The notes beneath the pieces were generated by a model. The model was not told the origin of the DNA. It was given only the letters and a program-made list of their open reading frames with translations, and ran no database searches. Both the position numbers and the translations under genes were made by a program. 14,399 nt of DNA from a virus (lineage: Duplodnaviria; Heunggongvirae; Uroviricota; Caudoviricetes). Location of the stretch: the IMG/VR virus record IMGVR_UViG_2711768167_000007, positions 1 to 14,399 of that record; one strand, 5' to 3'. Below are positions 1,105 to 14,399 of this stretch, one piece after another; within the stretch, counting starts at the first letter, position 1; the number at the start of each line of letters is the position of its first letter.

Positions 1105-1248
1105 TTTGTTTTGTAAGAATATGTCGGGAGAGTGAAACTTTTCTGACATATAAAGTGGTGCCCTCATGCCACTGCAAAACGTTGGACAGTACTTAACTTT
1201 TCCAACGGACTTTCTGTTATTTATTACCGTTTTTTGTTGTTTATACTT

Positions 1249-1277
1249 GGGCGCTTTGCGCCCGTTCTTTTATTTAT
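1249..1277 (+). terminator. Candidate rho-independent terminator downstream of the porin gene
   Basis: Perfect GC hairpin GGGCGC-TTT-GCGCCC (1249-1263) followed by T-rich GTTCTTTTATTTAT. On the minus strand the hairpin is followed by an A-rich tract, so it is probably unidirectional. Confidence 0.45.
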
Positions 1278-1287
1278 CCTGTACGCC

Positions 1288-1713
1288 TTATATCCCTGCC
1301 CTGAAGGACGGAGTTTTACGGCACATCGAATAATTTACGCTCACATACCGATCCATCTCAAGTCTTACTCCCAGCATCATCAACATGCCATCAACCACTC
1401 CTTCAGCTTTTTGCAAACGCTTTCCAATATGCGTATCAGAACATCCATGTTTCCTTGCTAACTTCATCAGCGTCATCCCACACACGTAGTAATCAACCAG
1501 CAATTCATGCAAATCACTGTTGTTCCGGTTCAGTTGAGCCATACAACCACAGATAATCATCGCGTCATCATCGGAACACTGCGGTCGCGATTTTACTTTT
1601 GACGGTATCAGCCCCTTGAATCCGGCGGCAATGGATGACCATTCCACGTCTTCGTGGTTATTCGCCACCCATGCCCCCCATCGCTCCATAACCTGCTGAA
1701 TATCACGCGCCAT
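1288..1713 (-). CDS. Late-gene antitermination protein Q-like (DLP12 QuuD-type)
   Basis: N-terminal [35 protein letters not shown]...SRPQC...[14 protein letters not shown] resembles QuuD-type Q proteins as I recall them. The track start at 1722 is a GTG; the first ATG is Met4 at 1713, which fits the family N-terminus better. Lies directly downstream of rusA, as in DLP12. Confidence 0.75.
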
Positions 1714-2074
1714 TGTTACCACCTGTAATTTCGTAAATCTTCACTCCCAGACGCCCGTCAGGTATTGACACGCCACGCACGATATAAATTTCATCAAACT
1801 GTTCGTCATCAATAAGCAGCCCCGCATGGGTCAGCGCATCCAGCGGTACTTTCAGTATGTTGTCCAGGTCACGGCGGCGGTTGTCTGGCGGGTCTGCGAT
1901 GATTTTTATACCCAGTCTTCCGGTCAGCCTTAATCTCAGTTGCTGCTGGCGAACAATAAGCCTGACATCACGACGATAACGTTCCCCCGCTTTTGATACA
2001 AAATACTTACCACCACGACGGTGCCAGTAAGTGTTCACCGGCGGCGGGTAAGGCAAAACAAATTCCAGACGCAT
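1703..2074 (-). CDS. rusA: Holliday-junction resolvase RusA
   Basis: 123 aa. N-terminal [11 protein letters not shown] and the acidic catalytic block [29 protein letters not shown] correspond to RusA (E. coli RusA has DRRRRDLDN...DALT...DD). GGAGG-containing RBS about 6 nt upstream of the ATG at 2074. Overlaps the Q gene start. Confidence 0.85.
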
Positions 2075-2192
2075 CTGTCCCCTCCTTCCACCCAGTCACA
2101 CCTGTTGCAAAAAAGCGTGGCAGAATAGAGAAAAAATTCAGCCATCACGCAGTAAACTCCTTCACCAGTTTTTCAAACTTTCCAGCCCTGCT

Positions 2193-3053
2193 TCATTGCT
2201 CACACTCCCCAACCAGATTGAGTATGACCGCAGCGCTATTGTCTTTCATATATTCGCCCTTTCCGCTTGCCAAAAACCAACGACACACCTCCACGGCTTC
2301 AGCCCGTGTCACCGGTTTGATGGTCATCAGCAATTTTTCAAGGTAGCGCTCGCGGTCATATACCGATTCGTGATGCTCAAAGTAACCAAACTCATCGCCC
2401 TGTTCTTTAGTTGCAGTGTGGCGAACACTGTAGAGCCAGTCCCAGTAAACAAACTCACGAACTACGTCTGACAATGTATGAGGCTCTGGCAGTACATCAC
2501 GATAGCCATCAACATATGCACGACGCTGATCATCAATTTCATTCATACGGATGCCGTCAATTCTGCCCGCTTTCTTCTCGGCTGCAGTCCAGCCCCAGAG
2601 ATGATCGTCGATAAATTTCTGGGAAGACTTGATCACTCGCTCGGCTTCCACATCTTCGAGTGCTGCTTCATAGCTACCAAACGTAGCCCTGACTGATGCT
2701 GCTTTTTTGATATTCTCCCGGGCGATCCTGATTGCCTGTGCCGGGTTATCCATGCCGATGGTACCGAAAGCAATCTGGAAAGGATCGCCACCATTCGCCA
2801 GCAGATAACGCGAATAGCGTTCCTGGGCCTCTTTTGGGGATATTTTAATTTTCACCAGCGCGGCCTCAGCAGCATCCAGATGTGCGGGTTCGTTCAGACG
2901 GATAACCTCCAGTACCCAAAGATAAGCATCAGTCTGCTTATGCCCGGTGATTCTCCGTTGCTCTGGCAGGGGTTTGATGTTTGCGAGGGCGGAGCTGTAC
3001 GCTGCCGTCGGGATGGTGAATAGTGCTTTATGTTCGTTGTTATCAGTACGCAT
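2193..3053 (-). CDS. Hypothetical phage protein (nin-region position), 286 aa
   Basis: Long ORF with ATG start; its start overlaps the stop of the upstream primase-like gene (TAATG). No family recognised by eye. Confidence 0.55.
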   Translation of the reverse strand: MRTDNNEHKALFTIPTAAYSSALANIKPLPEQRRITGHKQTDAYLWVLEVIRLNEPAHLDAAEAALVKIKISPKEAQERYSRYLLANGGDPFQIAFGTIGMDNPAQAIRIARENIKKAASVRATFGSYEAALEDVEAERVIKSSQKFIDDHLWGWTAAEKKAGRIDGIRMNEIDDQRRAYVDGYRDVLPEPHTLSDVVREFVYWDWLYSVRHTATKEQGDEFGYFEHHESVYDRERYLEKLLMTIKPVTRAEAVEVCRWFLASGKGEYMKDNSAAVILNLVGECEQ

Positions 3054-4021
3054 TACGCAGCCGCCTTTTTCTTATGGAAAACCAGCTCCCGAACCTGATC
3101 ACCGTTCATGAGCATATTGTTGAAATCATCGTGATCCGGCCAGTACACGCTCACGCGCTGCAGGTCATTCTTTGCCATCAGATTGGCATGAGCACATTCG
3201 CAAGCCGCAGCCAGCCCGGTGGCGCTGTTCTCGTCACGGTCGGCAAAAATAATCAGGTGCAGAACACCAGCTGGTACGCGGAACTTTTTCATAAAGCCGC
3301 TGTTAATGGTTGCCCAGGTGTTCACGTTATAAATCTGGTGCGCTGACAGCGCTGTTTCGATGCCTTCGGCGATACCCAGAGTGCTGGCGACAGGAAACAT
3401 GCGGATAGCTACAGAACGAGCGTGATCCAGATAGTTATCTTCCTGCAGGGATTTTAGGCGCTTTGCACTGCTACCGATATCTGCTTTTTTATCACCATCA
3501 AGCAGGGTCTGGTGCAGATAGCACAGCTCCCCTTTATCGTCCGTAGCAAGTGAATAAAGAGACTGGAACACACTCCCGTTGTGTCTCTGCCTGGCATTGA
3601 ACCTGATCGCCTCAGCAGGAAGACTGAATATTCCACGAGAATTAAGATACGCGGCGCCGGATGTACCACGCAGTGCCTCCAGTTTTGAAAACTTGCTCAA
3701 TACCCGTTTGCGTAAGCTGGTGGCGCTGCTGGTTACCGGGATTTTAACCCGTTGGTAATTATTACCGATCAGGCGGTCTATTTCGGTACAAATCACGTTA
3801 AATGGCTTCGCCTGTGTCAGGGTGACAAGTTTCATACCATCGCCACTACCACATACACAGATCCACGTTCCTGCACCGTCGCGGTCGTCAATTCGGAACT
3901 TGCCACGTGCACCGCATACCGGGCATTCACCCTTAAAGTGATTTTTTCCGGTTATCGGCGGCAGACCGAAGTGCTCTAATATTTCAGGCCAGCGGCCTTT
4001 CGCTGCATCTGCTGTTTTCAT
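3053..4021 (-). CDS. Primase-like protein with N-terminal zinc-binding motif and Toprim domain
   Basis: CPVCGARGKFRIDDRDGAGTWICVCG zinc-ribbon-like motif near the N-terminus and an acidic Toprim-like block LIIFADRDENSATG. Start lies 2 nt after the helicase stop (translational coupling). Confidence 0.75.
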   Translation of the reverse strand: MKTADAAKGRWPEILEHFGLPPITGKNHFKGECPVCGARGKFRIDDRDGAGTWICVCGSGDGMKLVTLTQAKPFNVICTEIDRLIGNNYQRVKIPVTSSATSLRKRVLSKFSKLEALRGTSGAAYLNSRGIFSLPAEAIRFNARQRHNGSVFQSLYSLATDDKGELCYLHQTLLDGDKKADIGSSAKRLKSLQEDNYLDHARSVAIRMFPVASTLGIAEGIETALSAHQIYNVNTWATINSGFMKKFRVPAGVLHLIIFADRDENSATGLAAACECAHANLMAKNDLQRVSVYWPDHDDFNNMLMNGDQVRELVFHKKKAAA

Positions 4022-4022
4022 C

Positions 4023-5681
4023 TTACTGACTCAGACTGTTTATATTTTTCTGGAGTTGTTGCTTTGCCTGCATAATGCGCCAAGCCTCACTTTCTTCCGG
4101 TGGAACATACCGGCCACCAACAACCAGTGGCAGAGAAAGCACTTCGGATGAGTTTTTCGTCATCCTCCGTGTCCGTTCACGACCTTTAGCAAACCGGATC
4201 AGCTTGTGTCTGATGTAGTTACTTACCTCTGGGCTTATTTCCATCGGGAAACTGCTCAACCCATCAGGCCATTCACCGAATTTCTCCCTGAAAGTGTGAG
4301 CGCACCATCCATCACTGACTGGACGCCCCAGTGAGGCACGCTGGCGCTGATAAAATTTGATCTGACTCCACCAGGCCTGTTTCTCTGCCTTCGTGGACTG
4401 ATGCTGATTTTTACCCAGCTTATTAAGTTTGCGGCTAGTGTCAGTATCAACGTCTTCACCTCGCAGCGGCTTGTGTCCACATTTCGGGCAAACATAGACG
4501 CCAGCTGGCTTCATGTAGTGGCATTGAGGGCATTCATGTGGCAATTTTTCGGCCCGTTCCTCAACTGCGCGGCGCGTGCTTTCCTCCATGCCGTCAGACT
4601 TACCGGGAAGATCGTCGTACTCGATTGAATCCGGATAACCCAGACGGTGCACGGTGCCGCTGTGATCGAAGATAAGGCAGGACGCTTTACCCGGTGCGGT
4701 GCGAAGTCCACGCCCGAGTGCCTGCAACCAGCGAATTTCGCTTTTTGTTGGCCTGGCGTAGATGATGCAACGAACGTCACTATCGAATCCGGCTACCAGA
4801 ACGCCCACACTAACGATGATTTTCGTTGCACCGGTTTCAAAGCGGTGAATGATGGTCTGGCGCTCATCTACCGGAGTGTCGGCGGTCATTACCTCAGCGT
4901 TAACACCCGCCAGGTTAAACTGGATTGTCAGATAATTGGCGTGAGCTACGTTGACGCAGAAAGCGATGGTAGGTAAATCCCGACCATTCTCCAGCCAGTT
5001 CTGTACGATGTCGCCCACCAGCGTAGAGCCGCACATGATTTCAGCCAGCTGCGTTTCGTTGTAATCCCGGCCGTACTCAAGCGAAGATGTGGTTTTAACA
5101 CCTTTCAGATCCGGCTTAGTTGGCGCGTAAAATTCGTATTTACTCAGATCGCCACGCTGGATTAACTCGCCGATGGTGGTCGGCTTAATCAGTCGGTCAT
5201 AGTATTTGCCCAGGAACGGAGAAAACGGAGTACCCGACAGGCCAATCACCTTTACGCCTTTGCCGCGCAGACGTTCGATATCCTTCAGGATGCGTTTTTT
5301 ACGCAGGTGCGCTTCGTCGATAATCAGCAGATCGATATTTTCAGGAAAAACACGACGAATAAGCGTGTCAGCGCTGGCAATCTGAATTTTCCGGTCCGGA
5401 TCGTAGTTCGGGTGATCCGCCCAGATATAACCGATTTCATCTCCAGGTAAACCATACTGCACGAACCGATTAGCCGTCTGACCAATCAGGATGGTGTACG
5501 GAACACAGAACAGAACGCGCATACCACGGCTGACAAAACCAGCAACTATGAAGGCTGCCAGACCCGTTTTACCGCTACCGGTTGGCGAGTACACCATGAA
5601 AGTGTCGTTTGCCTTCCAGTCACGGCGCAACATGTTTAACGCTCGTTCCTGTGCAAAATTCGGCGTGATCGTCAGCTCCAT
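4023..5681 (-). CDS. SF2 (DEAD/DEAH-box type) helicase with C-terminal zinc ribbon; putative replicative helicase of the prophage
   Basis: Walker A VYSPTGSGKTG, motif II LLIIDEAHL, motif III LSGTPF, motif VI QALGRGLR, and CPQC...CPKC zinc ribbon in the C-terminal extension. Occupies the position lambda O/P would take, between the cII-position gene and the nin region. Confidence 0.85.
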   Translation of the reverse strand: MELTITPNFAQERALNMLRRDWKANDTFMVYSPTGSGKTGLAAFIVAGFVSRGMRVLFCVPYTILIGQTANRFVQYGLPGDEIGYIWADHPNYDPDRKIQIASADTLIRRVFPENIDLLIIDEAHLRKKRILKDIERLRGKGVKVIGLSGTPFSPFLGKYYDRLIKPTTIGELIQRGDLSKYEFYAPTKPDLKGVKTTSSLEYGRDYNETQLAEIMCGSTLVGDIVQNWLENGRDLPTIAFCVNVAHANYLTIQFNLAGVNAEVMTADTPVDERQTIIHRFETGATKIIVSVGVLVAGFDSDVRCIIYARPTKSEIRWLQALGRGLRTAPGKASCLIFDHSGTVHRLGYPDSIEYDDLPGKSDGMEESTRRAVEERAEKLPHECPQCHYMKPAGVYVCPKCGHKPLRGEDVDTDTSRKLNKLGKNQHQSTKAEKQAWWSQIKFYQRQRASLGRPVSDGWCAHTFREKFGEWPDGLSSFPMEISPEVSNYIRHKLIRFAKGRERTRRMTKNSSEVLSLPLVVGGRYVPPEESEAWRIMQAKQQLQKNINSLSQ

Positions 5682-6094
5682 TGTGCAGCTCCCGTGCTGA
5701 TGAGATAATAATTTTGTGATGTGGTTTTCATGGATTCCCCCTCACATGGCTGGTGGCCTCCCCAAAGGCTGCCAGCCTCCCTTCTGATTCAGCTCCTCTG
5801 AAAAATCACTCTTCCAGGAAGAATCCTTTTCGTTTCTCAGCGCCTGAGCGCTTTGTACTACCTTGCTGATACGGGCGTTTTTTTAAATTGCGCCCTTAAG
5901 ACAGTGATCTACTTAACCAATGGATCTCTCCTGTTGGAAAAGACCCTATTCCTGCCCCAACACCCAATCCCCCCTTACCCCCCTTACCCTCTTCCCCATA
6001 AAAACGTACTACTTCCCTAGTACACATGAGGAGTTGGGTCAGTTGGTTGCCAACCTGAACAGGCACCTTTAAGCCTGCTTCTGTTCGGGTACCT
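5682..6094. other. Structured 413-bp intergenic region upstream of the helicase gene (candidate promoter and/or replication-origin region)
   Basis: Non-coding gap inside an otherwise tightly packed operon. Contains imperfect direct repeats GGCTGGTGGCCTCCCC (5748-5763) and GGCTGCCAGCCTCCC (5767-5781), a palindrome AGGCTGCCAGCCT (5766-5778), a hairpin GTACTA-N6-TAGTAC (about 6005-6022), a palindrome GGTTGCCAACC (about 6044-6054) and a C-rich tandem-repeat tract. Function is inferred, not shown. Confidence 0.35.
5971..5988. repeat. Tandem 9-mer CCCCTTACC x2 inside a C-rich tract (5955-5997)
   Basis: Direct reading: ccccttacc (5971-5979) immediately followed by ccccttacc (5980-5988), flanked by further C runs. 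The minus strand here is G-rich with at least four G runs. Confidence 0.8.
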
Positions 6095-6403
6095 TTAAAC
6101 CCGAAACAATGAGGAGCGCGATTGCGATCCAGCCAGGGGAGGTTCGGCTGTATACCCCTGTAAAGCTCTGCCCTGATTTCTTACAAACAGGCGGAGCCTT
6201 GTGTTTGCTTCGTGCCTTGCTCTGTTCTCCTTGCGGAATGAAACAGGCTCAGCGTCAAAAGTGATTTCGTATACCTCCGCATATTTCAGGGCAACCTTCC
6301 GTCTCAGTGACGGAGGCAGCCCCTGTAACTGCTGCTGAATCCACTCTTCGTCTGCCTGGCAGTACCTAGATGGCATCTCTGTCTGAACGTAATTCTGGGA
6401 CAT
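6095..6403 (-). CDS. Hypothetical protein at the cII position (possible regulatory protein), 102 aa
   Basis: ATG start 12 nt downstream of the Cro-like gene's stop. Identity not recognised; call rests on position only. Confidence 0.5.
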   Translation of the reverse strand: MSQNYVQTEMPSRYCQADEEWIQQQLQGLPPSLRRKVALKYAEVYEITFDAEPVSFRKENRARHEANTRLRLFVRNQGRALQGYTAEPPLAGSQSRSSLFRV

Positions 6404-6415
6404 ACAAGCCCTTCA

Positions 6416-6688
6416 TCATTCGTTTTTCATAACTGCCGCATTTGTGGCTGTGTGACTTCTACGTAACAAATCAGGGATTGCATCTTCAGGATGGGGATAA
6501 AGATCTGGTCTTAACCCATGAGGAGTAACTTTCCATTCCACAACTTCACATACACGCAAGACGAAACGAGCAGGAATTGTTCTTTTTGAAAACCATTGGT
6601 TCACAGCTTGCGGCGTAACGCCTAGATTTCGCGCTATGGCATTTTGTGCAATTAGCTCACGAAGTGCGTCGTAATCATTTCCTTTCAT
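6416..6688 (-). CDS. Cro-like / YdaS-type helix-turn-helix regulator, 90 aa
   Basis: Small protein with HTH-like segment RNLGVTPQAVNQWFSKRTIPARFVLRV. Transcribed divergently from the CI-like repressor across an operator-bearing intergenic region. Confidence 0.75.
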   Translation of the reverse strand: MKGNDYDALRELIAQNAIARNLGVTPQAVNQWFSKRTIPARFVLRVCEVVEWKVTPHGLRPDLYPHPEDAIPDLLRRSHTATNAAVMKNE

Positions 6689-6822
6689 CGCAACCCACCA
6701 ATCTAAACTTTATAAATTCAAGATTACATCAAGTTTAAATTAACATGCAAGTCCACAAAAGATCGAATACACTAAAATCAAGTAAAAATTTATCGAAACC
6801 AAGTAACCAGCAAGGATTAACA
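6689..6822. promoter_or_regulatory. Divergent immunity promoter/operator region (oR-like) between Cro-like and CI-like genes
   Basis: AT-rich 134-bp gap between divergent HTH genes. ATCAAGT motif at 6728-6734 and 6777-6783; the 13-mer aaatcaagtaaaa (6775-6787) recurs beyond the repressor gene at 7540-7552. Confidence 0.55.
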
Positions 6823-7512
6823 ATGAAAAACTTAAAGAGCACTGAAAATCGAATTACAAAGCTGCTACAGGAGAAAGGCTGGAGCCAAGCAGAGCTGGCC
6901 CGAAAGTTAGGTGTCAGCGCACAGTCCGTACAGTACTGGACAACAGGAAAAACATTTCCAAGGGGAAACCGGCTTGCCCAGTTATCCGAAATAAGTGGTT
7001 ATCCGCAATCGTGGTTTTTAGGAGAAATCACGTCACGGCAGTTCTCTTCAAAGGAAAAACATCAAGCAAGAACTGACAGTGTGGTCTTTAACGTGCTCGA
7101 TGTTGAGTTTAGTTGCGGCGATGGAACACATGTCCGTGGGGACTTTATCGATGTAGTTCGCTCAATCGAGCTTGATCCTGAATATGCCCGTCGCCTTGTT
7201 GGCAATAGAGCATTTCAAAACATAGAGATTGGTAACGCAAGAGGAGATAGTATGGCTCCAACAATAGCCCCAGGAGATCTTCTTTTTCTCGATAAAACAG
7301 TGAATTACTTTGATGGTGATGGCATTTATGCTTTTTGCTTTGATGGTGAATGCTACGTCAAAAGATTACAAAAGATAGGAAGTAAAATCATGGTGTTATC
7401 TGATAACCCAAATTACCAATCCTGGAGCATTGAAAAAGATGCTCTTGAGCTGCTTTATATCCAATCGAAGGTAATATCATCTGTTCCATTCAATATAAAT
7501 AGATTTGGTTAA
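6823..7512 (+). CDS. CI-like prophage repressor (N-terminal HTH-XRE, C-terminal S24 LexA-type peptidase domain)
   Basis: HTH segment GWSQAELARKLGVSAQSVQYWTTGKTFP; S24 catalytic motifs GDSMAPT (Ser) and VKRL (Lys). Start chosen at the ATG at 6823 (RBS AGGA about 6 nt upstream) rather than the track's 6745 ATG, because 6745-6822 carries the operator repeats. Confidence 0.85.
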   Translation: MKNLKSTENRITKLLQEKGWSQAELARKLGVSAQSVQYWTTGKTFPRGNRLAQLSEISGYPQSWFLGEITSRQFSSKEKHQARTDSVVFNVLDVEFSCGDGTHVRGDFIDVVRSIELDPEYARRLVGNRAFQNIEIGNARGDSMAPTIAPGDLLFLDKTVNYFDGDGIYAFCFDGECYVKRLQKIGSKIMVLSDNPNYQSWSIEKDALELLYIQSKVISSVPFNINRFG

Positions 7513-7659
7513 TTATTTATTATTAAAGAAAAAATTTACAAATCAAGTAAAAGAGACGCAGAAATCAATTTTTTCTTGACAACCCCATCAATCAAGATCT
7601 AACATCACACCATCAATTTTAACTTGATTTGTTGTTAATTTTAAATTGATGGTGATTCA
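7513..7659. promoter_or_regulatory. oL/pL-like promoter-operator region driving the plus-strand early operon
   Basis: ATCAAGT at 7542-7548, ATCAAG at 7591-7596 and inverted CTTGAT at 7623-7628. TTGACA at 7576-7581 with TAACAT 18 bp downstream (7600-7605). Perfect 12-bp inverted repeat CACCATCAATTT (7608-7619) / AAATTGATGGTG (7643-7654) overlapping the start region of the next gene. Confidence 0.5.
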
Positions 7660-8088
7660 ATGAAAGATCTGACAACCACTGAGATATCGAACTTAAACCA
7701 CTTCGAAAAAGAATCCTTTGCATTAAATATTGCAAATCTGGTAGGTGCTGCTCGTACTTTCCATTTAATTGATGGTGATCGCTCTAAAGAATTGGGGTTT
7801 GAAGTCATGGAGTTTGTTCATGAATACGCCCTGTCTGCTACTTATCCATTACATAATCACATAATCAACAAACAACCAAATAAAATCCGCACCCAACGCG
7901 AAGCCTGCGGCTTAACAACCGCCGAACTCGCCAGGCTGCTCGATCTCGATGAAGAAATTATCATCCAGTGGGAAAGCGGAGAGTACGAACCAACCATCAG
8001 CATGCTTATCCCTCTGGCTAATGTTCTTGGCTGTGATCCAATGTTGTTATTGACTGATGCTTATAAACAAAATCAGGAGGAAGCATAA
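7660..8088 (+). CDS. HTH-XRE DNA-binding protein with uncharacterised N-terminal domain, 142 aa
   Basis: C-terminal segment IRTQREACGLTTAELARLLDLDEEIIIQWESGEYEPTISMLIPLANVLGCDPMLL is a typical XRE-family HTH; the N-terminal 70 aa are unrecognised. First gene after the oL-like region. Confidence 0.65.
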   Translation: MKDLTTTEISNLNHFEKESFALNIANLVGAARTFHLIDGDRSKELGFEVMEFVHEYALSATYPLHNHIINKQPNKIRTQREACGLTTAELARLLDLDEEIIIQWESGEYEPTISMLIPLANVLGCDPMLLLTDAYKQNQEEA

Positions 8089-8089
8089 G

Positions 8090-8281
8090 ATGAAAATGTT
8101 CAAAGGCCTTACCAACGAACCGGAAACAGCTTTTCATCACATTGCCGTACTGCTTGAAGCGGGGTTAATCATTTCGGCTTCCGGTGATGATGAATGTGAT
8201 GAACTTTCGGATGATATCTTTTTACTGGCACAACAATACGCCAGAAGCGCATGCGATGCATTTAAGGAGCAAAGAACATGA
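8090..8281 (+). CDS. Small acidic hypothetical protein, 63 aa
   Basis: ATG at 8090 is 2 nt after the upstream stop, with AGGAGG 9 nt upstream. Preferred over the track's 8057 start, which overlaps the upstream gene. Rich in Asp/Glu. Confidence 0.5.
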   Translation: MKMFKGLTNEPETAFHHIAVLLEAGLIISASGDDECDELSDDIFLLAQQYARSACDAFKEQRT

Positions 8282-8469
8282 AAACGCCCATGACTATGCT
8301 CGAATATGTAGCCGCAGAAATAAAAGAAAACACGTCAATGCTTGAGTTTATCTTTAAAAATTCGCCCGACTCAGGAGAGTTAGACGATTATTTATGTTGT
8401 CTCATCAGGTCCATGAATAAGACCTGTGAAATGGCTTACGAGTATATAGAAACACTACGTAACGAATAA
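8278..8469 (+). CDS. Small acidic hypothetical protein, 63 aa
   Basis: ATGA start/stop overlap with the preceding gene; AAGGAG 7 nt upstream. Acidic composition. Confidence 0.5.
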   Translation: MKTPMTMLEYVAAEIKENTSMLEFIFKNSPDSGELDDYLCCLIRSMNKTCEMAYEYIETLRNE

Positions 8470-8653
8470 AGAATACTCAATAAAAAATCACACATAAAAA
8501 CATGACGGCCTCTGGTCGGGAGTTTTCACAACCAGAAAATAATGGTGATACATGAAAAATAGAAGCGCTTATAAAACCGCCTTATTAATGGCTAATGCAG
8601 GATACTGGTCAGTTGCAATACTGTTTCTTAGGAAAGCATACGGGAAATAACAA

Positions 8654-9013
8654 ATGGCATATGAAATCATTGGTAAATATCGTCACCGCATAGTCACAAC
8701 AGCATTACAGCGGATGCAACGTAAAACAGGAGGAAATCTTCTCATCGTAAATCTTCCTGACGGAGGGTTAACTACCATCGAAATTACGGAACACTTCATG
8801 ACACAACTGTTATTACGATTTGAAGGTCTTACCCGTGTTGAATTTGGACGGACGGATGGCGAGACCGCAATACTTGCCGCATACCGGAATGCCATCAATA
8901 TTAATCAACACACTGAGTATCTAACTGAATCGGGGAAGTTAATTGTAGACAACCTTTTAAAAGAGGTTGTTGATTACGAAAAAGAAAAATATACCAGTGG
9001 AGGAATTAACTGA
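8654..9013 (+). CDS. Hypothetical protein, 119 aa
   Basis: ATG-initiated ORF after a 184-bp gap; stop overlaps the next ORF's start (TGATG). Confidence 0.5.
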   Translation: MAYEIIGKYRHRIVTTALQRMQRKTGGNLLIVNLPDGGLTTIEITEHFMTQLLLRFEGLTRVEFGRTDGETAILAAYRNAININQHTEYLTESGKLIVDNLLKEVVDYEKEKYTSGGIN

Positions 9014-9222
9014 TGTCTGATTTATCCCCTCTTATACACGAAAAAGTAAATATCGTGCTGACAATCGAGAACGGGAAAGTTATCCACGTGCGCCCGGTTC
9101 AGAACGGCGAGGTTACAGCATCGCTGGAGACTTTTTTATGGATGGCTGAACGCGCCGGTTACACGATCACCCCACCTGCAGGAGAGAAGGACAATGGCCC
9201 TGACAGCGATACGAATTCCTGA
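9013..9222 (+). CDS. Hypothetical protein, 69 aa
   Basis: ATG overlapping the upstream stop. Its 3' end overlaps the 9194 ORF by 29 nt, so one of the two may be shorter or not real. Confidence 0.4.
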   Translation: MSDLSPLIHEKVNIVLTIENGKVIHVRPVQNGEVTASLETFLWMAERAGYTITPPAGEKDNGPDSDTNS

Positions 9223-9415
9223 GCGGGTGCACCTGCAGGCGGTCCGTGTTCTCCGCAAGTTCAGAGCCAGACGAATTCATCCCTGTCGTATGCACGGCTC
9301 CGGAAACCTGAGTCTGAGGGTTAATCGCCGCTGGCGGCTGCTGTCCCGAGACGGCGGCCAGAACTGGGAAGTAATGAGCCATGAACGATACAGCAAAGTT
9401 AAGGACCGGAAATGA
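9194..9415 (+). CDS. Hypothetical arginine-rich small protein, 73 aa
   Basis: ATG at 9194 with GAGAAGGA RBS-like sequence just upstream; strongly basic (many Arg). Overlaps the preceding ORF. Confidence 0.3.
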   Translation: MALTAIRIPERVHLQAVRVLRKFRARRIHPCRMHGSGNLSLRVNRRWRLLSRDGGQNWEVMSHERYSKVKDRK

Positions 9416-9448
9416 ACAATAAACCTTCAAACCAAAAGGAGAGTATTG

Positions 9449-10027
9449 ATGATTAATTCAACCATTACCCCTGAACCTACATTAACAGGCATCCGTTTTG
9501 GTAATCGAATTATTGGTTATTCAACTGCGGTTCGCCAGATCGACAACGGTAACTATGACAAACGAATTCCGGACGGGCTCGATCTGATAGCTTGCATTAT
9601 GGAAGGGATTGAAAGCGGCTGGTTTATGCCGGGTATTGAAAAACAAATCATCCTATGGCGCTGGCTTGTTGTCGCCGTGTTCATTGCTGAGGAGCAGGAG
9701 AAGAACGGGACTGTCGATGTTCAGAATGACAAGGGCGGCGTAGATACAGCCGTTGTATACACAGGAAAACCCGGTTCAATCAGCATTTATCCGTGGTCTG
9801 AGCGCTTCACGCTCGCCAACCATATTGAGGCGGGCGCAATTGAAAAATACGGGCCTGACGTTGGCCAGCAGATGGCGCTGCGTATGTATCAGGACATGGT
9901 TGTAACTGACGAGAAATGCGGATTCAGGCTGTCAGCGATGGGCCAGGAGGGATTCAACATACTACATGACAGCTTCATTGAACTGATTCAGAAAGACGGT
10001 ATGCCAGACATGCCGGTTATGCACTGA
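9449..10027 (+). CDS. Hypothetical protein, about 192 aa
   Basis: The track ORF begins at a TTG (9446); the first ATG is at 9449 with AAAGGAGAG RBS 7 nt upstream. Followed 11 nt later by the next gene. Confidence 0.55.
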   Translation: MINSTITPEPTLTGIRFGNRIIGYSTAVRQIDNGNYDKRIPDGLDLIACIMEGIESGWFMPGIEKQIILWRWLVVAVFIAEEQEKNGTVDVQNDKGGVDTAVVYTGKPGSISIYPWSERFTLANHIEAGAIEKYGPDVGQQMALRMYQDMVVTDEKCGFRLSAMGQEGFNILHDSFIELIQKDGMPDMPVMH

Positions 10028-10038
10028 GGTGGACGAAA

Positions 10039-10788
10039 ATGAACATAGTAACGATCAATAACAAACAGTTTCCGGTAATCGACTATCGCGGTCAGCGCGT
10101 GGTGACGCTGGCGATGATTGATGAAGTGCACCAACGCCCAGACGGAACAGCGGGACGCAATTTCCGCGAAAACAAGTCTCGTCTTATTGAAGGGGAAGAC
10201 TACTTCGAATTAGGTTCCGACGAAATTCGTCGACACCTCCCTGACGGTACTTTCTCAAAATTTGCAGCAGCAGGAATTGTACTGGTCGAATCCGGTTATT
10301 TGATGTTGGTGAAATCCTTCACCGACGATCTGGCCTGGCAGGTTCAGCGCGAACTGGTTAACAGCTACTTCCGCACTCGCGCACCTCTTTCTGAAATCGA
10401 GATGATCGCCGCAATGGCCGCCGATGCCGTTCGCCAGCAGAAGCGCCTGAATCATGTGGAAGAACAGCTCGAAACAGTCACAGAAGCGGTGGAAACCATC
10501 AAACGCGGAAATATGCGCGCCGGATATGTCGGTTATCGCCAGGTGGTCGCCAAAAGCGGAATGACTGATGCTAAGTGCCGCAATCTGGTCAATGCCTACA
10601 GCATCCCAACCGATACGCACGAATTTATGACACCAGATGGTCTTCTTTCGCGCCGGGCTATCGTGGAGCTGGAGCCGTTCATGAAAGCATTTCATCAGAT
10701 GATGTCAGAGGCAGAGCCACGCGGCACACGCTGGTATCACCCGAAGATGGGACTTTTCCAGGTGATCGGATGGGAGGATAAAGCATGA
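10039..10788 (+). CDS. ORF6N/KilA-N-superfamily domain protein (antirepressor-like DNA-binding protein), 249 aa
   Basis: N-terminal segment QRVVTLAMIDEVHQRPDGTAGRNFRENKSRLIEGEDYFEL follows the ORF6N pattern (...RN..RF.eDF.F.L..eE) as I recall it. GAGGTGG RBS upstream. Coupled to neighbours on both sides. Confidence 0.6.
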   Translation: MNIVTINNKQFPVIDYRGQRVVTLAMIDEVHQRPDGTAGRNFRENKSRLIEGEDYFELGSDEIRRHLPDGTFSKFAAAGIVLVESGYLMLVKSFTDDLAWQVQRELVNSYFRTRAPLSEIEMIAAMAADAVRQQKRLNHVEEQLETVTEAVETIKRGNMRAGYVGYRQVVAKSGMTDAKCRNLVNAYSIPTDTHEFMTPDGLLSRRAIVELEPFMKAFHQMMSEAEPRGTRWYHPKMGLFQVIGWEDKA

Positions 10789-11354
10789 TCATCCAGTCAA
10801 AACTTATTCGCGCCGCTCTGGTGTGCGCTGCTAAAAACGACGTTCGTTATTACCTGAACGGTCTTCACATCACGCCGAAACATATTGAGGCAACCAATGG
10901 TTGCGTGGCACTGCGCATGGCTCACGGCATCCGGACGAAGAAAAACATCATTGTCCAGTTCGAAGGGGGCGTACCGGCCAAAGCCGAAACGACAGAGCTG
11001 ATTTTTAGTAAAGAGCCGATCGCTGTTCATCGCGACCAGTTTCAGCGACGACTGTCCATTACCGGCATAAAACTGGTGGACGGTTGTTTTCCGGATTTGG
11101 ATCGCATCATTCCGAAAAAGTTTGACCGCTGTACTCATCCGGTGATCCAGGCGGGTTACCTGAGTTATCCAGAGAAGATGTTTGGTCGTGAGCGTAAATT
11201 TATTCCCGTCCAGTTACGTCCCTCCGGTGACGGGCAAGCGGTCAGAATTCAGTTTGATTCCATCATCAACTCAATGTATGGCAATCCTGAATTTGTTGTG
11301 ATGCCTTGTCGTGATTATGGCGATTTCAACGTGGCTCAGGAGCATCCGGAATGA
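10785..11354 (+). CDS. Shortened beta-sliding-clamp (DnaN)-like protein, 189 aa
   Basis: Motif-level matches to E. coli DnaN recalled from memory: NDVRYYLNG vs QDVRYYLNG (start of DnaN domain II), KLVDGCFPDLDRIIPK vs KLVDGRFPDYRRVLPK (end of domain II), C-terminal EFVVMPCR vs AYVVMPMRL. ATGA overlap with the upstream gene; GGGAGGA RBS. Confidence 0.6.
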   Translation: MIIQSKLIRAALVCAAKNDVRYYLNGLHITPKHIEATNGCVALRMAHGIRTKKNIIVQFEGGVPAKAETTELIFSKEPIAVHRDQFQRRLSITGIKLVDGCFPDLDRIIPKKFDRCTHPVIQAGYLSYPEKMFGRERKFIPVQLRPSGDGQAVRIQFDSIINSMYGNPEFVVMPCRDYGDFNVAQEHPE

Positions 11355-11575
11355 AAATCGAATACCAGGACTATGGCGCCGTAGCGAACATCGTGATCAC
11401 CAGTTCCCGCCTGACATTGCAAAAGCATAACCGCGTTGTTGATGCGGTGCTGTTTAATGTACAGGGGATCTATGAAAACCGCAGCGGCTTTTTCTGGGTT
11501 AAGTCATCGTTGTCAGGAAAAACACGCGACATCCTGCGCGCCTACAAAATCGTACAGCGGGAGGCAAAGCGATGA
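11351..11575 (+). CDS. Hypothetical protein, 74 aa
   Basis: ATGA-coupled to the upstream gene, with CAGGAGC RBS-like sequence. Confidence 0.45.
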   Translation: MKIEYQDYGAVANIVITSSRLTLQKHNRVVDAVLFNVQGIYENRSGFFWVKSSLSGKTRDILRAYKIVQREAKR

Positions 11576-11667
11576 AGTCATTCCTCCTGTCCATGCTGTT
11601 TGGTCTGCTGCTGGCGTCCGTCGTTTTCGGTGCGCTGATTGAATATAAATTTTTAATGAATTACTGA
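11572..11667 (+). CDS. Candidate small hydrophobic (single-TM-like) peptide, 31 aa
   Basis: Not in the ORF track (too short). ATG at 11572 overlaps the upstream stop (ATGA). Translation MKSFLLSMLFGLLLASVVFGALIEYKFLMNY is dominated by a hydrophobic stretch. Confidence 0.3.
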   Translation: MKSFLLSMLFGLLLASVVFGALIEYKFLMNY

Positions 11668-11675
11668 GGTGCGGA

Positions 11676-12305
11676 ATGAGCAAGATCAAAAACCCAGTTG
11701 TACTTATCCATAAACGAGAAAATAGTGACTCCTACGCCGTTGCAATCACCTGCGGTAGCCAGAACTATCACGACGCCGTTCTGATGGCGTCGATGGAACT
11801 GGATATGAGTGACGATGATGTCGATACCTGGAGTAAAACCGGCTACTACATGGCTCAAGAAATCGAGCGACTTAAACAAGCGCTGTCCGCTGCGGAAAAT
11901 AATTTGATTGATTCCGAATGCCTCGTCGCTGAATTAAGCAAAGCAAAGAATCACGCATATGGGCTGGTCGACACATACGACTGGCAACGTCAGCGTCTCC
12001 ACGCAGCCGCAGAGAAAGTCATCAAATGGTGCAGACAAGAAGCTGAACACCGTACCGGCGACCCAGAGAAAGCAGAAAACTATGCGTGTGTTAAAGAACT
12101 ACGCGACGCATTAACTTTTTGCAAAAGTTCTGAAGGCAGCAAGAAGAAAGGCCTGACCATCACCCTGCCCGATATCACATCAAAGGCATTCTGGAGCGGT
12201 ACCGGAAAAAACGCAAAATTCCATCCGGAAACCTATAAACGCTGGGTGAAAGAAGCTGTCAAACGGGATTGTGTTATTGCCGGGATCGGCGTGGAGGTGA
12301 AATGA
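11676..12305 (+). CDS. Hypothetical protein, 209 aa
   Basis: ATG with GAGGTG RBS. No family recognised; occupies the region where lambda carries ea-type accessory genes. Confidence 0.55.
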   Translation: MSKIKNPVVLIHKRENSDSYAVAITCGSQNYHDAVLMASMELDMSDDDVDTWSKTGYYMAQEIERLKQALSAAENNLIDSECLVAELSKAKNHAYGLVDTYDWQRQRLHAAAEKVIKWCRQEAEHRTGDPEKAENYACVKELRDALTFCKSSEGSKKKGLTITLPDITSKAFWSGTGKNAKFHPETYKRWVKEAVKRDCVIAGIGVEVK

Positions 12306-12388
12306 TGAATTGGCCTGAAGCATTCACCGCAGTAGGAGTTGCAATAGCGGTGGCATTTATTCTGTATTCGCTTTTCCGCTGGGGATAA
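12302..12388 (+). CDS. Candidate small hydrophobic peptide, 28 aa
   Basis: Not in the ORF track. ATG at 12302 overlaps the upstream stop (ATGA). Translation MMNWPEAFTAVGVAIAVAFILYSLFRWG has one hydrophobic helix-length segment. Confidence 0.3.
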   Translation: MMNWPEAFTAVGVAIAVAFILYSLFRWG

Positions 12389-12392
12389 AGGA

Positions 12393-12635
12393 ATGTTCGC
12401 TCTGATTCAACGTGGTCAGATATACACCGATAGTGCTGGCTACCCGGTAAAAATTATTCGCTGCATAAACAACACTGTGTTGTACAGAAGAATGGATGGG
12501 AGAACACAGTCGGTAAAAATAAACGATTTCAATGAACTGTTTGAACGGATTGATCACCAGGAATACCGACAAATTCTGGCAGAAACAGAGCAGGAAGCTC
12601 ATCTGAAAAAATTACGGGCCATGAAAAGGAAGTAA
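12393..12635 (+). CDS. Hypothetical small protein, 80 aa
   Basis: ATG with AAGGA RBS 3 nt upstream. Basic C-terminus. No family recognised. Confidence 0.5.
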   Translation: MFALIQRGQIYTDSAGYPVKIIRCINNTVLYRRMDGRTQSVKINDFNELFERIDHQEYRQILAETEQEAHLKKLRAMKRK

Positions 12636-12638
12636 AGA

Positions 12639-12785
12639 ATGAATAAAGCATTTGAACTATGGGTGCGCCAGCGTTATGGCAATCGCTATGACCTGACGCG
12701 AGATGTTGACGGTTTCTACTGTCGTGAAATTGTGAAACGAATGTTTGAAGTGTGGTGCCACTGCCGTGGGCTGAGTGTTGTGTGA
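12639..12785 (+). CDS. Hypothetical small protein, 48 aa
   Basis: Not in the ORF track. ATG at 12639 with AAAAGGAAG upstream; translation MNKAFELWVRQRYGNRYDLTRDVDGFYCREIVKRMFEVWCHCRGLSVV. Confidence 0.35.
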   Translation: MNKAFELWVRQRYGNRYDLTRDVDGFYCREIVKRMFEVWCHCRGLSVV

Positions 12786-12793
12786 GGTAATGC

Positions 12794-13030
12794 ATGGGCA
12801 ATGTGATTCAACTGGCTCCCAATGAATGGGTTTGTGAAAGCGTTCTAATCGCAATTACCGGGCTCAAACCAGGCACAATTCTTCGGGCCCGAAAAGAATG
12901 CTGGATGGTTGGAAGAGAGTATATTCACGTATCACCAGACGGTAATCCAAAGCCTTCCAGTGAATGTATGTATAACAGAAAAGCAATAGATGCCTGGGTC
13001 GCTTCAATGAAAAACAAACAACCTGGGTGA
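12794..13030 (+). CDS. Excisionase-like protein (putative Xis)
   Basis: 78-aa protein immediately upstream of the integrase on the same strand. The segment GLKPGTILRARKECWMVGREYIHVSPDGNPKPSSECMYNRKAIDAWV resembles the putative-excisionase family of enterobacterial prophages as I recall it. Confidence 0.6.
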   Translation: MGNVIQLAPNEWVCESVLIAITGLKPGTILRARKECWMVGREYIHVSPDGNPKPSSECMYNRKAIDAWVASMKNKQPG

Positions 13031-13085
13031 TTTAATGCCATGAAGTATGTAAGCTCGTATCGCTCTTGGGCGTCTGGAGGTATCA

Positions 13086-14399
13086 ATGGATAAAGTCAAA
13101 TATCCAACAGGCGTCGAAAACCACGGCGGCACATTACGCATCTGGTTTAATTTTAAAGGTAAACGTGTCAGGGAAAATCTTGGTGTCCCTGACACTGCCA
13201 AGAACAGGAAAATCGCCGGGGAACTGCGGACATCGGTATGTTTTGCCATCCGCACAGGAAGCTTTGATTATGCTGCACAGTTCCCTGACTCCCCTAACCT
13301 TCAGGCTTTTGGGGTAAGTAAAAAAGAAATTACGGTGAAGGAACTTGAAGAAAAGTGGCTGGATCTGAAACGAATGGAGATCTCTGCAAATGCATTCAAT
13401 CGCTATGAATCCGTTGCAAGAACGATGGTTCCGAAAATTGGAGGCAGCAGACTGGTGTCATCGGTAACTAAAGAGGAATTGCTGTATATCAGGAAAGATT
13501 TGCTGACCGGGTACCAGAATTCAACGAAAAACAAAGCAGCAGCAAAAGGACGGAGCGTCGTTACTGTAAATTATTACATGACGACAATCGCTGGAATGTT
13601 TCAGTTTGCTGCAGATCACGGTTACTTAGAAGCAAATCCCTTCCAGGGAATTAAGCCTCTTAAAAGAGCCAGGGCAGAGCCAGATCCGCTAACTCGTGAC
13701 GAATTTATTCGCCTGATAGATGCTTGCCGACATCAGCAGACGAAAAACCTGTGGTCATTGGCTGTGTACACAGGAATGCGTCACGGTGAACTGGTCTCCC
13801 TGGCCTGGGAAGATATCGATCTGAAAGCAGGAACTATTACTATCAGGCGCAATTATACGAAACTCGGTGAGTTCACTCTACCTAAAACTGAAGCAAGTAC
13901 AAACAGGGTTGTGCATCTTATCCAGCCCGCTATCAGTGTCCTGAAAAATCAGGCTGAAATGACAAGACTGGGTAAGCAGCACCACATCAAGGTTCAACTA
14001 CGTGAATATGGGCGTTCAGTGAATCATGAATGTACTTTCGTATTTAACCCCCAGGTGGTTAGAAAAAGCAAACAGGTCGGTTTTATCTACAAGGTAGATT
14101 CTATTGGCGACTCATGGGAAACAGCCATTAAGCGTGCGGGCATCAGGCACCGGAAAGCATACCAGTCACGACACACTTATGCGTGCTGGTCATTATCTGC
14201 CGGAGCAAATCCAAGCTTCATTGCCAGCCAGATGGGCCATGCAAGTGCCCAGATGGTGTTCAATGTATACGGAGCATGGATGACTGACAGTAATGCAGAA
14301 CAGATCGCAATGCTGAATCAGAAGCTGGCAGATTATGTCCCAATGATGTCCCATGGTCACCAAAGTGACACAAGAGACTTATTAAAATCAGTGGGTTAG
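13086..14399 (+). CDS. Tyrosine site-specific integrase (phage integrase family)
   Basis: GGAGG RBS 5 nt upstream of the ATG. N-terminal arm-binding-type region (PTGVENHGGTLRIWFNFKGKRVRE), catalytic-domain motifs RHGELVSLAWEDIDL, SRHTYACW (box II R/H) and GHASAQMVFNVYGAW (His and Tyr nucleophile region). Stop codon is the last three bases of the window. Confidence 0.9.
   Translation: MDKVKYPTGVENHGGTLRIWFNFKGKRVRENLGVPDTAKNRKIAGELRTSVCFAIRTGSFDYAAQFPDSPNLQAFGVSKKEITVKELEEKWLDLKRMEISANAFNRYESVARTMVPKIGGSRLVSSVTKEELLYIRKDLLTGYQNSTKNKAAAKGRSVVTVNYYMTTIAGMFQFAADHGYLEANPFQGIKPLKRARAEPDPLTRDEFIRLIDACRHQQTKNLWSLAVYTGMRHGELVSLAWEDIDLKAGTITIRRNYTKLGEFTLPKTEASTNRVVHLIQPAISVLKNQAEMTRLGKQHHIKVQLREYGRSVNHECTFVFNPQVVRKSKQVGFIYKVDSIGDSWETAIKRAGIRHRKAYQSRHTYACWSLSAGANPSFIASQMGHASAQMVFNVYGAWMTDSNAEQIAMLNQKLADYVPMMSHGHQSDTRDLLKSVG

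Follow-up and report, generated by a model that had tools for sequence, protein, structure and literature searches.

What do three small, translationally coupled genes do when a lambdoid prophage carries them directly behind its CI repressor gene and an operator-bearing promoter? The question is raised by a stretch of 14,399 nucleotides, called the window here (positions 1 to 14,399 of IMG/VR record IMGVR_UViG_2711768167_000007), which belongs to a phiP27/phi467-like lambdoid prophage of Escherichia coli. The three genes, which we call HTH142, sp1 and sp2, form a cassette at positions 7660-8469, and a first-pass annotation made from the letters alone had likened them to anti-CRISPR/Aca-like loci and to antitoxin-containing modules. 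We found that sp1 and sp2 are two families of hairpin proteins undescribed in Pfam, NCBIfam, PADLOC and the searched literature, and that HTH142 appears to join a relative of sp1 to a helix-turn-helix (HTH) domain with an acidified recognition helix. The reading that we favour, tentatively and short of calling it probable, is that the three proteins make up a hetero-oligomerising hairpin module which, with a logic like that of SinR/SinI, would titrate a DNA-binding protein involved in the lysis/lysogeny switch soon after derepression. The three genes of the cassette are the following.

7660-8088, plus strand: HTH142, 142 amino acids (aa), with a predicted sp1-type N-terminal hairpin at about residues 18-67 and an acidic XRE domain at residues 74-132

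8090-8281, plus strand: sp1, 63 aa, a predicted acidic two-helix hairpin (PHROG 4587, E 1e-33)

8278-8469, plus strand: sp2, 63 aa, a predicted acidic two-helix hairpin (PHROG 6882, E 2e-37)

These are real genes and not chance open reading frames (ORFs). The same three coding sequences are annotated in RefSeq and in GenBank, the ratio of non-synonymous to synonymous substitution (dN/dS) in sp2 is 0.12 at a dS of 0.70 (against phi467 and JNEC-KY202), and the unit made of the HTH142 C-terminus, sp1 and sp2 is present in 354 of 5426 complete E. coli genomes (6.5%). The three frames and their coupling stand as first described, with a gap of a single nucleotide between HTH142 and sp1 (TAA g ATG) and an ATGA overlap between sp1 and sp2. 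The start of sp1 is the ATG at 8090, with AGGAGG 9 nt upstream; an alternative reading of 74 aa from 8057 has no Shine-Dalgarno sequence, and the homologues begin MK(T/M)FKGL. The 63-aa reading is preferred as the probable one, and the longer reading seems less likely.

The small proteins had been called strongly acidic. They are acidic, with isoelectric points (pI) of 4.41 for sp1 and 4.45 for sp2 (4.69 for HTH142) and net charges of -7 and -6, but the wording was overstated: aspartate and glutamate make up 19% of the residues in each, which is below classical DNA mimics and similar to the other small ORFs of the operon (o69, pI 4.67). In both the sequence and the AlphaFold2 model, the acidic residues of sp1 are concentrated at the hairpin tip, SGDDECDELSDD, and are not spread along the whole surface. 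No match of sp1 or sp2 to DNA-mimic anti-restriction families of the Ocr or ArdA type was found in Pfam, NCBIfam or PADLOC.

Profile searches and structure prediction for the two small proteins had been suggested by the first-pass annotation, as had a comparison of the slot across related prophages, and both were run. The predictions yielded two confident hairpins with no housekeeping homology in the family scans. The AlphaFold2 model of sp1 has a predicted local distance difference test score (pLDDT) of 93.8 and consists of a short beta segment (3-8) followed by helices 11-29 and 34-62, while that of sp2 has a pLDDT of 93.6 and helices 4-28 and 35-62; both are antiparallel two-helix hairpins with an acidic turn. 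The beta segment of sp1 prompted us to consider a ribbon-helix-helix protein, a candidate that was rejected on account of helices far longer than those of that fold, the acidic character and the lack of a ribbon-helix-helix match.

Pfam, NCBIfam and PADLOC contain no family for sp1 or sp2, toxin, defence and housekeeping families included, and the PHROGs to which they belong (4587 for sp1; 6882/27579 for sp2) are all function-unassigned. Foldseek searches of the PDB with both models and of BFVD with sp2 retrieved only generic hairpins (E >= 0.8), the exception being sp2's own homologue from Klebsiella phage ST16-OXA48phi5.3 in BFVD. The nearest PDB shapes, all non-significant, were Rop variants, CsoR/CstR and designed homo-oligomers, which are obligate oligomeric hairpins. 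Profile searches against PDB sequences returned nothing for the hairpins, and fused members of the families matched by their HTH part only. Literature searches by accession and PHROG number retrieved no paper on these proteins, and the phi467 papers concern Stx phage typing. Small proteins accompanied by an HTH protein beside a phage repressor are already known as a general kind; the present case is new in that it has domain families of its own, its architecture is reversed and fused, and its HTH is acidified.

The sp1 family comprises 76 homologues, all enterobacterial. An exhaustive HMMER scan of 1.84 billion proteins yielded 45 representatives of the sp2 family, which has the conserved motif CLIRSMxKT, and in several of these (P0096, P0104, P0117 and P0119) sp2 stands N-terminal to one or two XRE domains of the HTH142 subfamily. 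Most sp2 proteins are 115-141 aa long, with a C-terminal helical extension of the form ...DDIFDVxxTAKKLExxxQTYSE... (L003 3189-3611; L006 3001-3421; L008 4189-4536). In phage EKP1 the extension is a separate ORF of 74 aa, and the sp2 of the window is the short form without it. In some phages sp1 is in turn preceded by an extra N-terminal domain of about 55 aa, which we call X (MKKFENITVLHVDDFDY...IVIREKRIVKNR; PHROG 5451; L018 4275-4640, L106 3757-4122, P0047 and L021 4210-4845, including phiP27 L08). X matches no Pfam family, and an AbrB/MazE-like identity, considered for it in the 121-aa X-sp1 proteins, had no Pfam support. A common origin of sp1 and sp2 found no support either, with hhalign, hidden Markov model (HMM) and BLASTP comparisons all null and the hairpin architecture alone in common.

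In HTH142, by contrast with sp2, a relationship to sp1 could be detected. The C-terminal XRE HTH that had been read from the sequence is borne out by Pfam HTH_3 (residues 76-127, E 3.5e-11), and PHROG 4587, the sp1 family, also matches HTH142 at aa 16-61 with an E-value of 2.9e-7. For a non-circular test, an HMM was trained on nothing but 13 free-standing sp1-type proteins and searched with a nominal Z of 1e4. This model matched the N-terminal domains of HTH fusions, with E-values of 1e-14 for ASU11, 4e-10 for the P0040 type and 6e-5 for the HTH142 of the window (aa 23-61), and did not match sp2 or other neighbouring proteins. Pairwise BLASTP of the N-terminal domain against sp1 returned nothing, so the relationship is seen with profiles only. 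On these profile matches, the N-terminal domain of HTH142 is identified as a divergent paralogue of sp1.

The position of the cassette follows from the elements that surround the repressor gene.

6745-7512, plus strand: cI-type repressor gene (Pfam Peptidase_S24, E 9e-17; HTH_3, E 7e-9)

6697-6793: OR region between cro and cI, with three 17-bp ATCAA-N7-TTGAT operators at 6697-6713, 6728-6744 and 6777-6793

7564-7650: OL region, with three ATCAA-N7-TTGAT operators at 7564-7580, 7612-7628 and 7634-7650

7576-7605, plus strand: pL-like sigma-70 promoter, with TTGACA at 7576-7581, an 18-nt spacer and TAACAT at 7600-7605

Annotated homologues of the repressor start at an internal ATG (6823, giving 229 aa), and the phi467 coding sequence is 229 aa long. 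The promoter, TTGACA-18-TAACAT, matches the consensus at 10 of 12 positions and is the best sigma-70 candidate of the region. The earlier description of an operator-bearing promoter after the CI-like gene is thus accurate, as this promoter carries three CI-type operators: the one at 7564-7580 overlaps the -35 hexamer, the one at 7612-7628 is perfect, and the trio has 0, 1 and 2 mismatches. Inverted-repeat pairs I1-I3 connect the OR sites with the OL sites. All six ATCAA-N7-TTGAT sites are predicted CI operators, in what we read as a tripartite OL/OR layout that serves a single repressor. The HTH protein's own binding site had been proposed to be the inverted repeat at 7608-7654; this could not be upheld, as the repeat consists of OL operators two and three, two CI operators that are also present at OR. 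In the pL transcript, the same repeat is predicted to fold at the 5' end into a hairpin of 18 bp (-17.3 kcal/mol, z -3.1) that covers the GGUG Shine-Dalgarno sequence of HTH142, and control of HTH142 translation by this hairpin is a possibility.

The cassette is therefore predicted to be the first transcription unit of the CI-controlled leftward early, pL-type operon, with its genes made early from the CI-controlled promoter. In lambda, rexAB lies between cI and pL; the cassette lies downstream of the pL-like promoter and its operators, which places it in the N position and not in the rexAB slot. Of the rexAB/N neighbourhood suggested by the first-pass annotation, the N half thus stands, the cassette holding the first pL genes, and the rexAB half does not: in one relative, L019, a true rex-like moron precedes the cassette. 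That gene (L019 728-1885) begins 22 bp after cI, upstream of an sp2-HTH gene, and encodes a 385-aa protein with an HSDR_N domain (restriction-endonuclease-like); it looks like a moron in the rexAB position and may be a prophage defence gene. Similar to the lambda pL genes N, ral, cIII and gam, the cassette genes are the first of a CI-controlled leftward operon in position and timing, but family scans found no homology between the cassette proteins and N, ral, cIII or gam. Lambda N is a basic, RNA-binding protein, whereas the cassette encodes acidic hairpins.

The interval between cI and the cassette also bears on whether the cassette could be a toxin-antitoxin, abortive-infection or superinfection-exclusion module that is transcribed in the lysogen by read-through from cI, like rexAB. 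In the window, nothing resembling a terminator hairpin is present in the interval from cI to the pL-like promoter (7513-7575). In JNEC-KY202 and PhiR49_2, however, a strong GC stem with a T-run stands between cI and the cassette (L002 5655-5690; L018 approximately 3465-3490), so read-through into the cassette in a lysogen would be possible in this prophage only, and three CI operators lie at the promoter of the cassette. Antitoxin models of the MqsA and HipB type match the XRE domain weakly, but these matches fall far below the curated cut-offs (MqsA_antitoxin, 14.2 bits against 30; HipB type, 26.9 against 71.65; MqsA family, 24.9 against 61.8) and span the generic HTH only. With sp1 and sp2 looking like soluble acidic hairpins that match no toxin family, and with the rex-like moron of L019 lying upstream of the cassette, we regard a module of this kind as very unlikely, and the antitoxin-type layout read from the sequence found no support.

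If the cassette is not of that kind, the XRE domain of HTH142 could still make it an ordinary regulator. According to this explanation, HTH142 is a DNA-binding early regulator that uses its hairpin only to dimerise, and sp1 and sp2 are neighbours with no functional link to it. The XRE HTH is clear, relatives with tandem HTH domains and more canonical recognition helices exist, and the protein is labelled as a regulator in databases, as "CII-like regulator" in PHROG 4836 and as "DicA" in phi467. These labels are, however, annotation transfers without experiments; the DicA model scores HTH142 at 33.8 bits against a cut-off of 101, and the HTH of DicA is N-terminal.

The charge of the domain itself also speaks against this explanation. 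XRE domains of the HTH142 type carry a net charge of -7 to -8 over 62 residues, whereas those of a small comparison set (12 CI HTH domains from the studied loci, 434 CI, 434 Cro, P22 C2, SinR and DicA) range from +1 to +7. The recognition helix of HTH142 begins L-D-E-E-I-I, compared with T-Q-Q-S-I, S-N-V-A-I or S-A-Q-S-V in DNA-binding relatives. D-E-E thus stands where base-contacting residues sit, E-Y-E-P replaces the basic loop after the recognition helix, and the acidic helix pattern is kept in all E. coli members. Moreover, different immunity types keep this HTH although no candidate site recurs in their promoters: the promoters of three immunity types with the same HTH domain have nothing in common beyond the -35 hexamer. 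As the domain is at net -7, its recognition helix starts with D-E-E and the promoters have no common motif, canonical operator binding by HTH142, including Aca-like autorepression at the promoter repeats, appears unlikely. The neighbour status of sp1 and sp2 is also hard to maintain, given the paralogy of sp1, the translational coupling and the fusion of both families to HTH domains. All in all, an ordinary early regulator seems to us a rather improbable description of HTH142.

What the hairpins and the HTH have to do with each other is better seen in other phages. HMMs for sp1, sp2, the HTH domain and the S24 domain were run over 24 curated loci, which include Stx1a, Stx2a and Stx2d phages, phiP27, ASU11 and Klebsiella, Citrobacter and Enterobacter prophages. 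Hairpin genes followed a CI-like gene in 24 of 24. The window, phi467 and JNEC-KY202 have the architecture [sp1'-HTH][sp1][sp2] directly after cI, and other loci have, in the same place, [sp1][sp2]; [sp1][sp1][sp2]; [sp1-HTH-HTH][X-sp1]; [sp1'-HTH][X-sp1]; [sp2+extension]; [sp2-HTH]; or [sp2-HTH-HTH][X-sp1-HTH]...[sp1]. The fusions (sp1-HTH, sp1-HTH-HTH, sp2-HTH, sp2-HTH-HTH and X-sp1-HTH) all draw on one HTH subfamily (...PLANxLGCDPMWLLTG), and in L021 [sp2-HTH-HTH] and [X-sp1-HTH] are encoded side by side. In phiP27 L10, yet another N-terminal domain precedes the same HTH.

A further 80 IMG/VR loci were chosen with an sp2 pattern. A CI-like gene on the same strand ends 123-540 bp before the first hairpin gene in 78 of them, which answers the question of the slot across relatives with a recurrent position after cI. 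Forty have sp1 and sp2 together, and consecutive hairpin ORFs are spaced by -4, -1 or +4 nt in 42 of 45 cases. Both families occupy one fixed locus across phages of Escherichia, Klebsiella, Citrobacter, Enterobacter and Salmonella. The CI proteins adjacent to the cassettes of the curated loci fall into at least 6 N-terminal (specificity) types and two C-terminal classes that are about 20% identical, and several replication modules are represented; as the CI types and replication modules differ, the association is with the position after cI/pL and not with a particular immunity. One scan of a species-representative genome collection found no relative. Two recorded host names stood out in these comparisons. 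"Elizabethkingia phage EKP1" (L006/L009, OM284015.1) has an sp1 identical to that of Phytobacter P0025 and is syntenic with enterobacterial prophages, and "Aeromonas phage AsXd-1" (L104, MH178096.1) carries a 74%-identical homologue of the 193-aa protein of the window; we consider the recorded hosts of both doubtful.

The closest parallel to this arrangement is the SinR/SinI system (and SlrR/SlrA) of Bacillus subtilis, in which a small protein pairs with a regulator in an intermolecular four-helix bundle and alters the activity of the regulator (PMC3163267). As in that system, an XRE protein with a two-helix domain is encoded alongside a free paralogue of that domain: HTH142 combines an XRE with an sp1-family domain, the fold of which we take from the sp1 model, and sp1 is the free homologue. 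The differences are that the hairpin here is N-terminal, i.e., the order is reversed, that it has approximately 50 residues instead of approximately 35, and that the XRE here is strongly acidic. There is also a second, unrelated hairpin family here, sp2, and hairpins occur in phages without an HTH partner; the pairing, for its part, is one that we infer. Profile searches of sp1 and sp2 against PDB sequences gave no match to SinR or SinI.

With this parallel in mind, the mechanism that we favour would run as follows. A lone two-helix hairpin has no closed hydrophobic core, from which we infer that the hairpins of sp1, sp2 and the HTH142 N-terminus pair into four-helix bundles. Mutual assembly is further suggested by the coupled, adjacent and recurrently co-occurring hairpin genes, together with the [sp2-HTH-HTH][X-sp1-HTH] pair of L021. 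Free sp1, and probably sp2, would enter mixed bundles, partnering one another as well as the hairpin at the N-terminus of HTH142. The XRE domain of HTH142, with its acidic recognition helix, probably does not recognise operators canonically and may have lost DNA binding. The assembly would then act by protein-protein titration immediately after derepression or infection, its likeliest target presumably being a basic DNA-binding protein of the lysis/lysogeny circuitry, whether the phage's own or that of a co-resident prophage.

The mosaic structure of the locus shows which parts of the cassette travel together. Two features of the window are needed here.

7885, no strand: mosaic junction seen by blastn against JNEC-KY202, at the boundary of the N-terminal and HTH domains of HTH142

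8552-8650, plus strand: conserved micro-ORF, 32 aa, MKNRSAYKTALLMANAGYWSVAILFLRKAYGK, unannotated, with a GGTGA ribosome-binding site

By blastn, the window and JNEC-KY202 share 96% identity as far as the end of cro (6415), show no relationship over 6416-7884 and are homologous again from 7885. Approximately 340 E. coli genomes have the same breakpoint and match only from query position 386-389 on. As homology resumes exactly at the HTH domain, the N-terminal hairpin travels with the immunity module (cro, OR, cI and OL/pL), and the HTH domain, sp1 and sp2 are common to different immunity types. Another junction coincides with the boundary of sp1 and sp2 (8278), where sp1 is nearly identical between relatives and sp2 is a diverged allele (dS 0.70).

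The micro-ORF (...AYKTA.L......LFLRKAYGK), whose stop is separated from the next gene by 3 nt, forms the right-hand boundary of a variable slot that begins at pL. In all the related phages that were examined, with hairpin genes or without, the slot is followed by homologues of 35-48 aa (...AYKTAxL...LFLRKAYGR), and phages that share the downstream genes may carry unrelated genes in the slot. In Aeromonas phage AsXd-1 the slot encodes a protein of 97 aa together with an S24-like one, and in Klebsiella phage KPP5665-2 and in P18-100 it encodes proteins of 104 and 62 aa, so the earlier description of the region as an accessory slot was apt. The 62-aa protein of KPP5665-2 (L105 2932-3120, MSDITLQKAASKAYQAEIVARMLENYPHKLTDSDVESVASLLADLIGPVAAYLIEEESKNPA) is unrelated in sequence and looks like an acidic two-helix hairpin. 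The slot may thus hold hairpins that have diverged past sequence recognition.

Several of these observations weigh against a hetero-oligomerising hairpin module and have to be set beside it. Two types of N-terminal domain, approximately 25% identical, occur with nearly identical sp1 and sp2, and such dissimilar partners for the same small proteins make a specific pairing of the N-terminal domain with sp1 awkward. Between sp1 and sp2 there is no detectable homology. None of the 80 IMG/VR loci chosen with the sp2 pattern has an HTH, and as most family members lack one, the core activity of the hairpins must be independent of an HTH partner. Some HTH domains in fused and tandem-HTH relatives look canonical, with net charges of +1 to +2. 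The presence of unrelated genes in the slot of some close relatives indicates that the module is dispensable for the basic life cycle. Lastly, the hairpin families track neither the specificity nor the C-terminal class of the adjacent CI, which disfavours a CI-specific target; the conserved CI C-terminal domain, which we had considered as the target of the hairpins, was weakened as a candidate by the two adjoining C-terminal classes being only about 20% identical.

A more far-reaching idea, which we think unlikely, is that the cassette represents a hitherto unrecognised class of lambdoid switch modulators in which a modular, hetero-oligomerising decoy, made first from pL, captures basic DNA-binding proteins. 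The capturing would be done by the DNA-binding-incompetent XRE domain and the acidic hairpin tips, the candidate targets being repressors or Cro of co-resident prophages, LexA-like proteins and XRE-type repressors of host defence operons, and the immunity-linked N-terminal hairpin would provide self/non-self specificity. If this is true, the derepression of one prophage would be coupled to the state of others.

The variable slot and the shuffled architectures also bear on a different explanation, which we hold to be possible but on the unlikely side: that the cassette serves counter-defence or host takeover, the acidic hairpins blocking a host defence or repair protein that binds nucleic acids (candidates are a restriction enzyme, RecBCD or an H-NS-like silencer) and the HTH acting as a regulatory or adaptor module. 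The genes are the first from pL, small and acidic; related phages differ in what the slot contains, there is heavy shuffling of copy number and domain architecture, and alleles have been exchanged at the sp1/sp2 boundary. No Red/Gam-type genes were seen in the early-left operon of the window (ORF list and family scans). In addition, the optional fusion to an HTH resembles bifunctional Acr-Aca proteins such as AcrIIA1 (PMC9410906).

That resemblance extends to small early proteins being linked or fused to an HTH domain, but not to the layout. The aca genes normally lie downstream of acr genes in the same operon (PMC8633003, PMC9410906), and Aca, an autorepressor, binds an inverted repeat of its own within the promoter of that operon (PMC9410906). 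In the cassette, the small genes come after the HTH gene, in relatives as well, which is the reverse of acr-aca operons (PMC8633003). The cassette promoter belongs to the CI circuit of the phage, its repeats being CI operators, and no Aca-type conserved inverted repeat private to the cassette is present; the acidic recognition helix, starting L-D-E-E, would be poorly suited to autorepression. The Aca/Acr-like layout proposed by the first-pass annotation is therefore not retained. No model of defence or anti-defence matched the proteins in PADLOC, Pfam, NCBIfam or the PHROGs, where HTH142 drew generic HTH matches only in this respect, and a content of 19% aspartate and glutamate is nothing unusual in small proteins of phages. 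At anti-defence loci known so far, many unrelated families are usually found, whereas the same two families persist at this one locus across enterobacterial genera.

Control of a phage switch by small proteins, as the favoured hairpin module would exert it, has other precedents. In the TF-smORF modules of Silpe et al. 2023, which pair a transcription factor (TF) with a small ORF (Qtip/VqmA-phi and TF72-smORF72), the small protein inactivates cI without proteolysis (PMC10432266). Similar to these, the cassette combines an accessory HTH protein with small proteins without known homologues in a variable region of a temperate phage. There, however, the TF activates a divergently oriented smORF independently of the SOS response (PMC10432266), while here the genes are co-directional, coupled and under a CI-repressed promoter, and the HTH of HTH142 looks unfit for DNA binding. 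Further precedents come from Gram-positive phages. AimX blocks the oligomerisation of AimC in arbitrium phages (bioRxiv 10.1101/2025.11.23.689978), and MOR-CI of TP901-1 is described in a review (PMC11323111) as small-protein control of a phage repressor. Both resemble the proposed module in that small phage proteins steer the switch through protein contacts with a small HTH repressor. They differ in sequence, to which the cassette proteins are unrelated, and in having the master repressor as the partner, while the hairpins here do not co-vary with CI.

Around the repressor and the cassette, the window has the following layout.

Minus strand: genes for a Q-like antiterminator, RusA, a toprim protein, a helicase, the small ORF o102 and a Cro/YdaS-like protein

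6416-6688, minus strand: Cro/YdaS-like gene

Plus strand, in order after cI: the cassette, small early genes including one for an ORF6N protein, a beta-clamp-like protein gene, excisionase and integrase

The nearest phage record is the Stx2f phage phi467, with 95% identity across the cassette. An ORF6N/KilA-N-type protein (possibly an antirepressor) and an overlapping 189-aa gene are encoded at 10039-11354 on the plus strand, in the same early-left operon; in relatives, the latter has the RefSeq label "beta clamp domain-containing". An OmpC/NmpC-like porin gene (1-1104, plus strand), presumably phage-borne cargo, adjoins the Q-like antiterminator gene (1288-1722, minus strand) where the regulatory region of the prophage ends. 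The cassette has a GC content of 41.2% and cI of 40.6%, compared with 25-31% in intergenic stretches, 47.0% in the whole window and approximately 50% in the flanking replication genes. The AT-richness of the cassette and repressor region that had been noticed by eye is thus real but modest, and the horizontal acquisition that had been read from it is, as a recent event, only weakly indicated because the cassette holds the same position in many phages.

In lambda-like phages, the course that infection or induction takes is set by the genes that pL transcribes first, and lambda has N there. Many enterobacterial prophages have hairpin proteins instead, among them Stx1a-, Stx2a-, Stx2d-, Stx2e- (phiP27) and Stx2f- (phi467) converting phages. 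Should repressors or other DNA-binding proteins be modulated by the hairpins, prophage induction, and through it the release of Shiga toxin, would have a new control point, as would the competition among prophages that share a host. If the hairpins serve counter-defence, they would add two new families with a simple and tractable fold. Either way, the fusion of both families to one HTH subfamily, together with the acidified recognition helix, provides concrete hypotheses.

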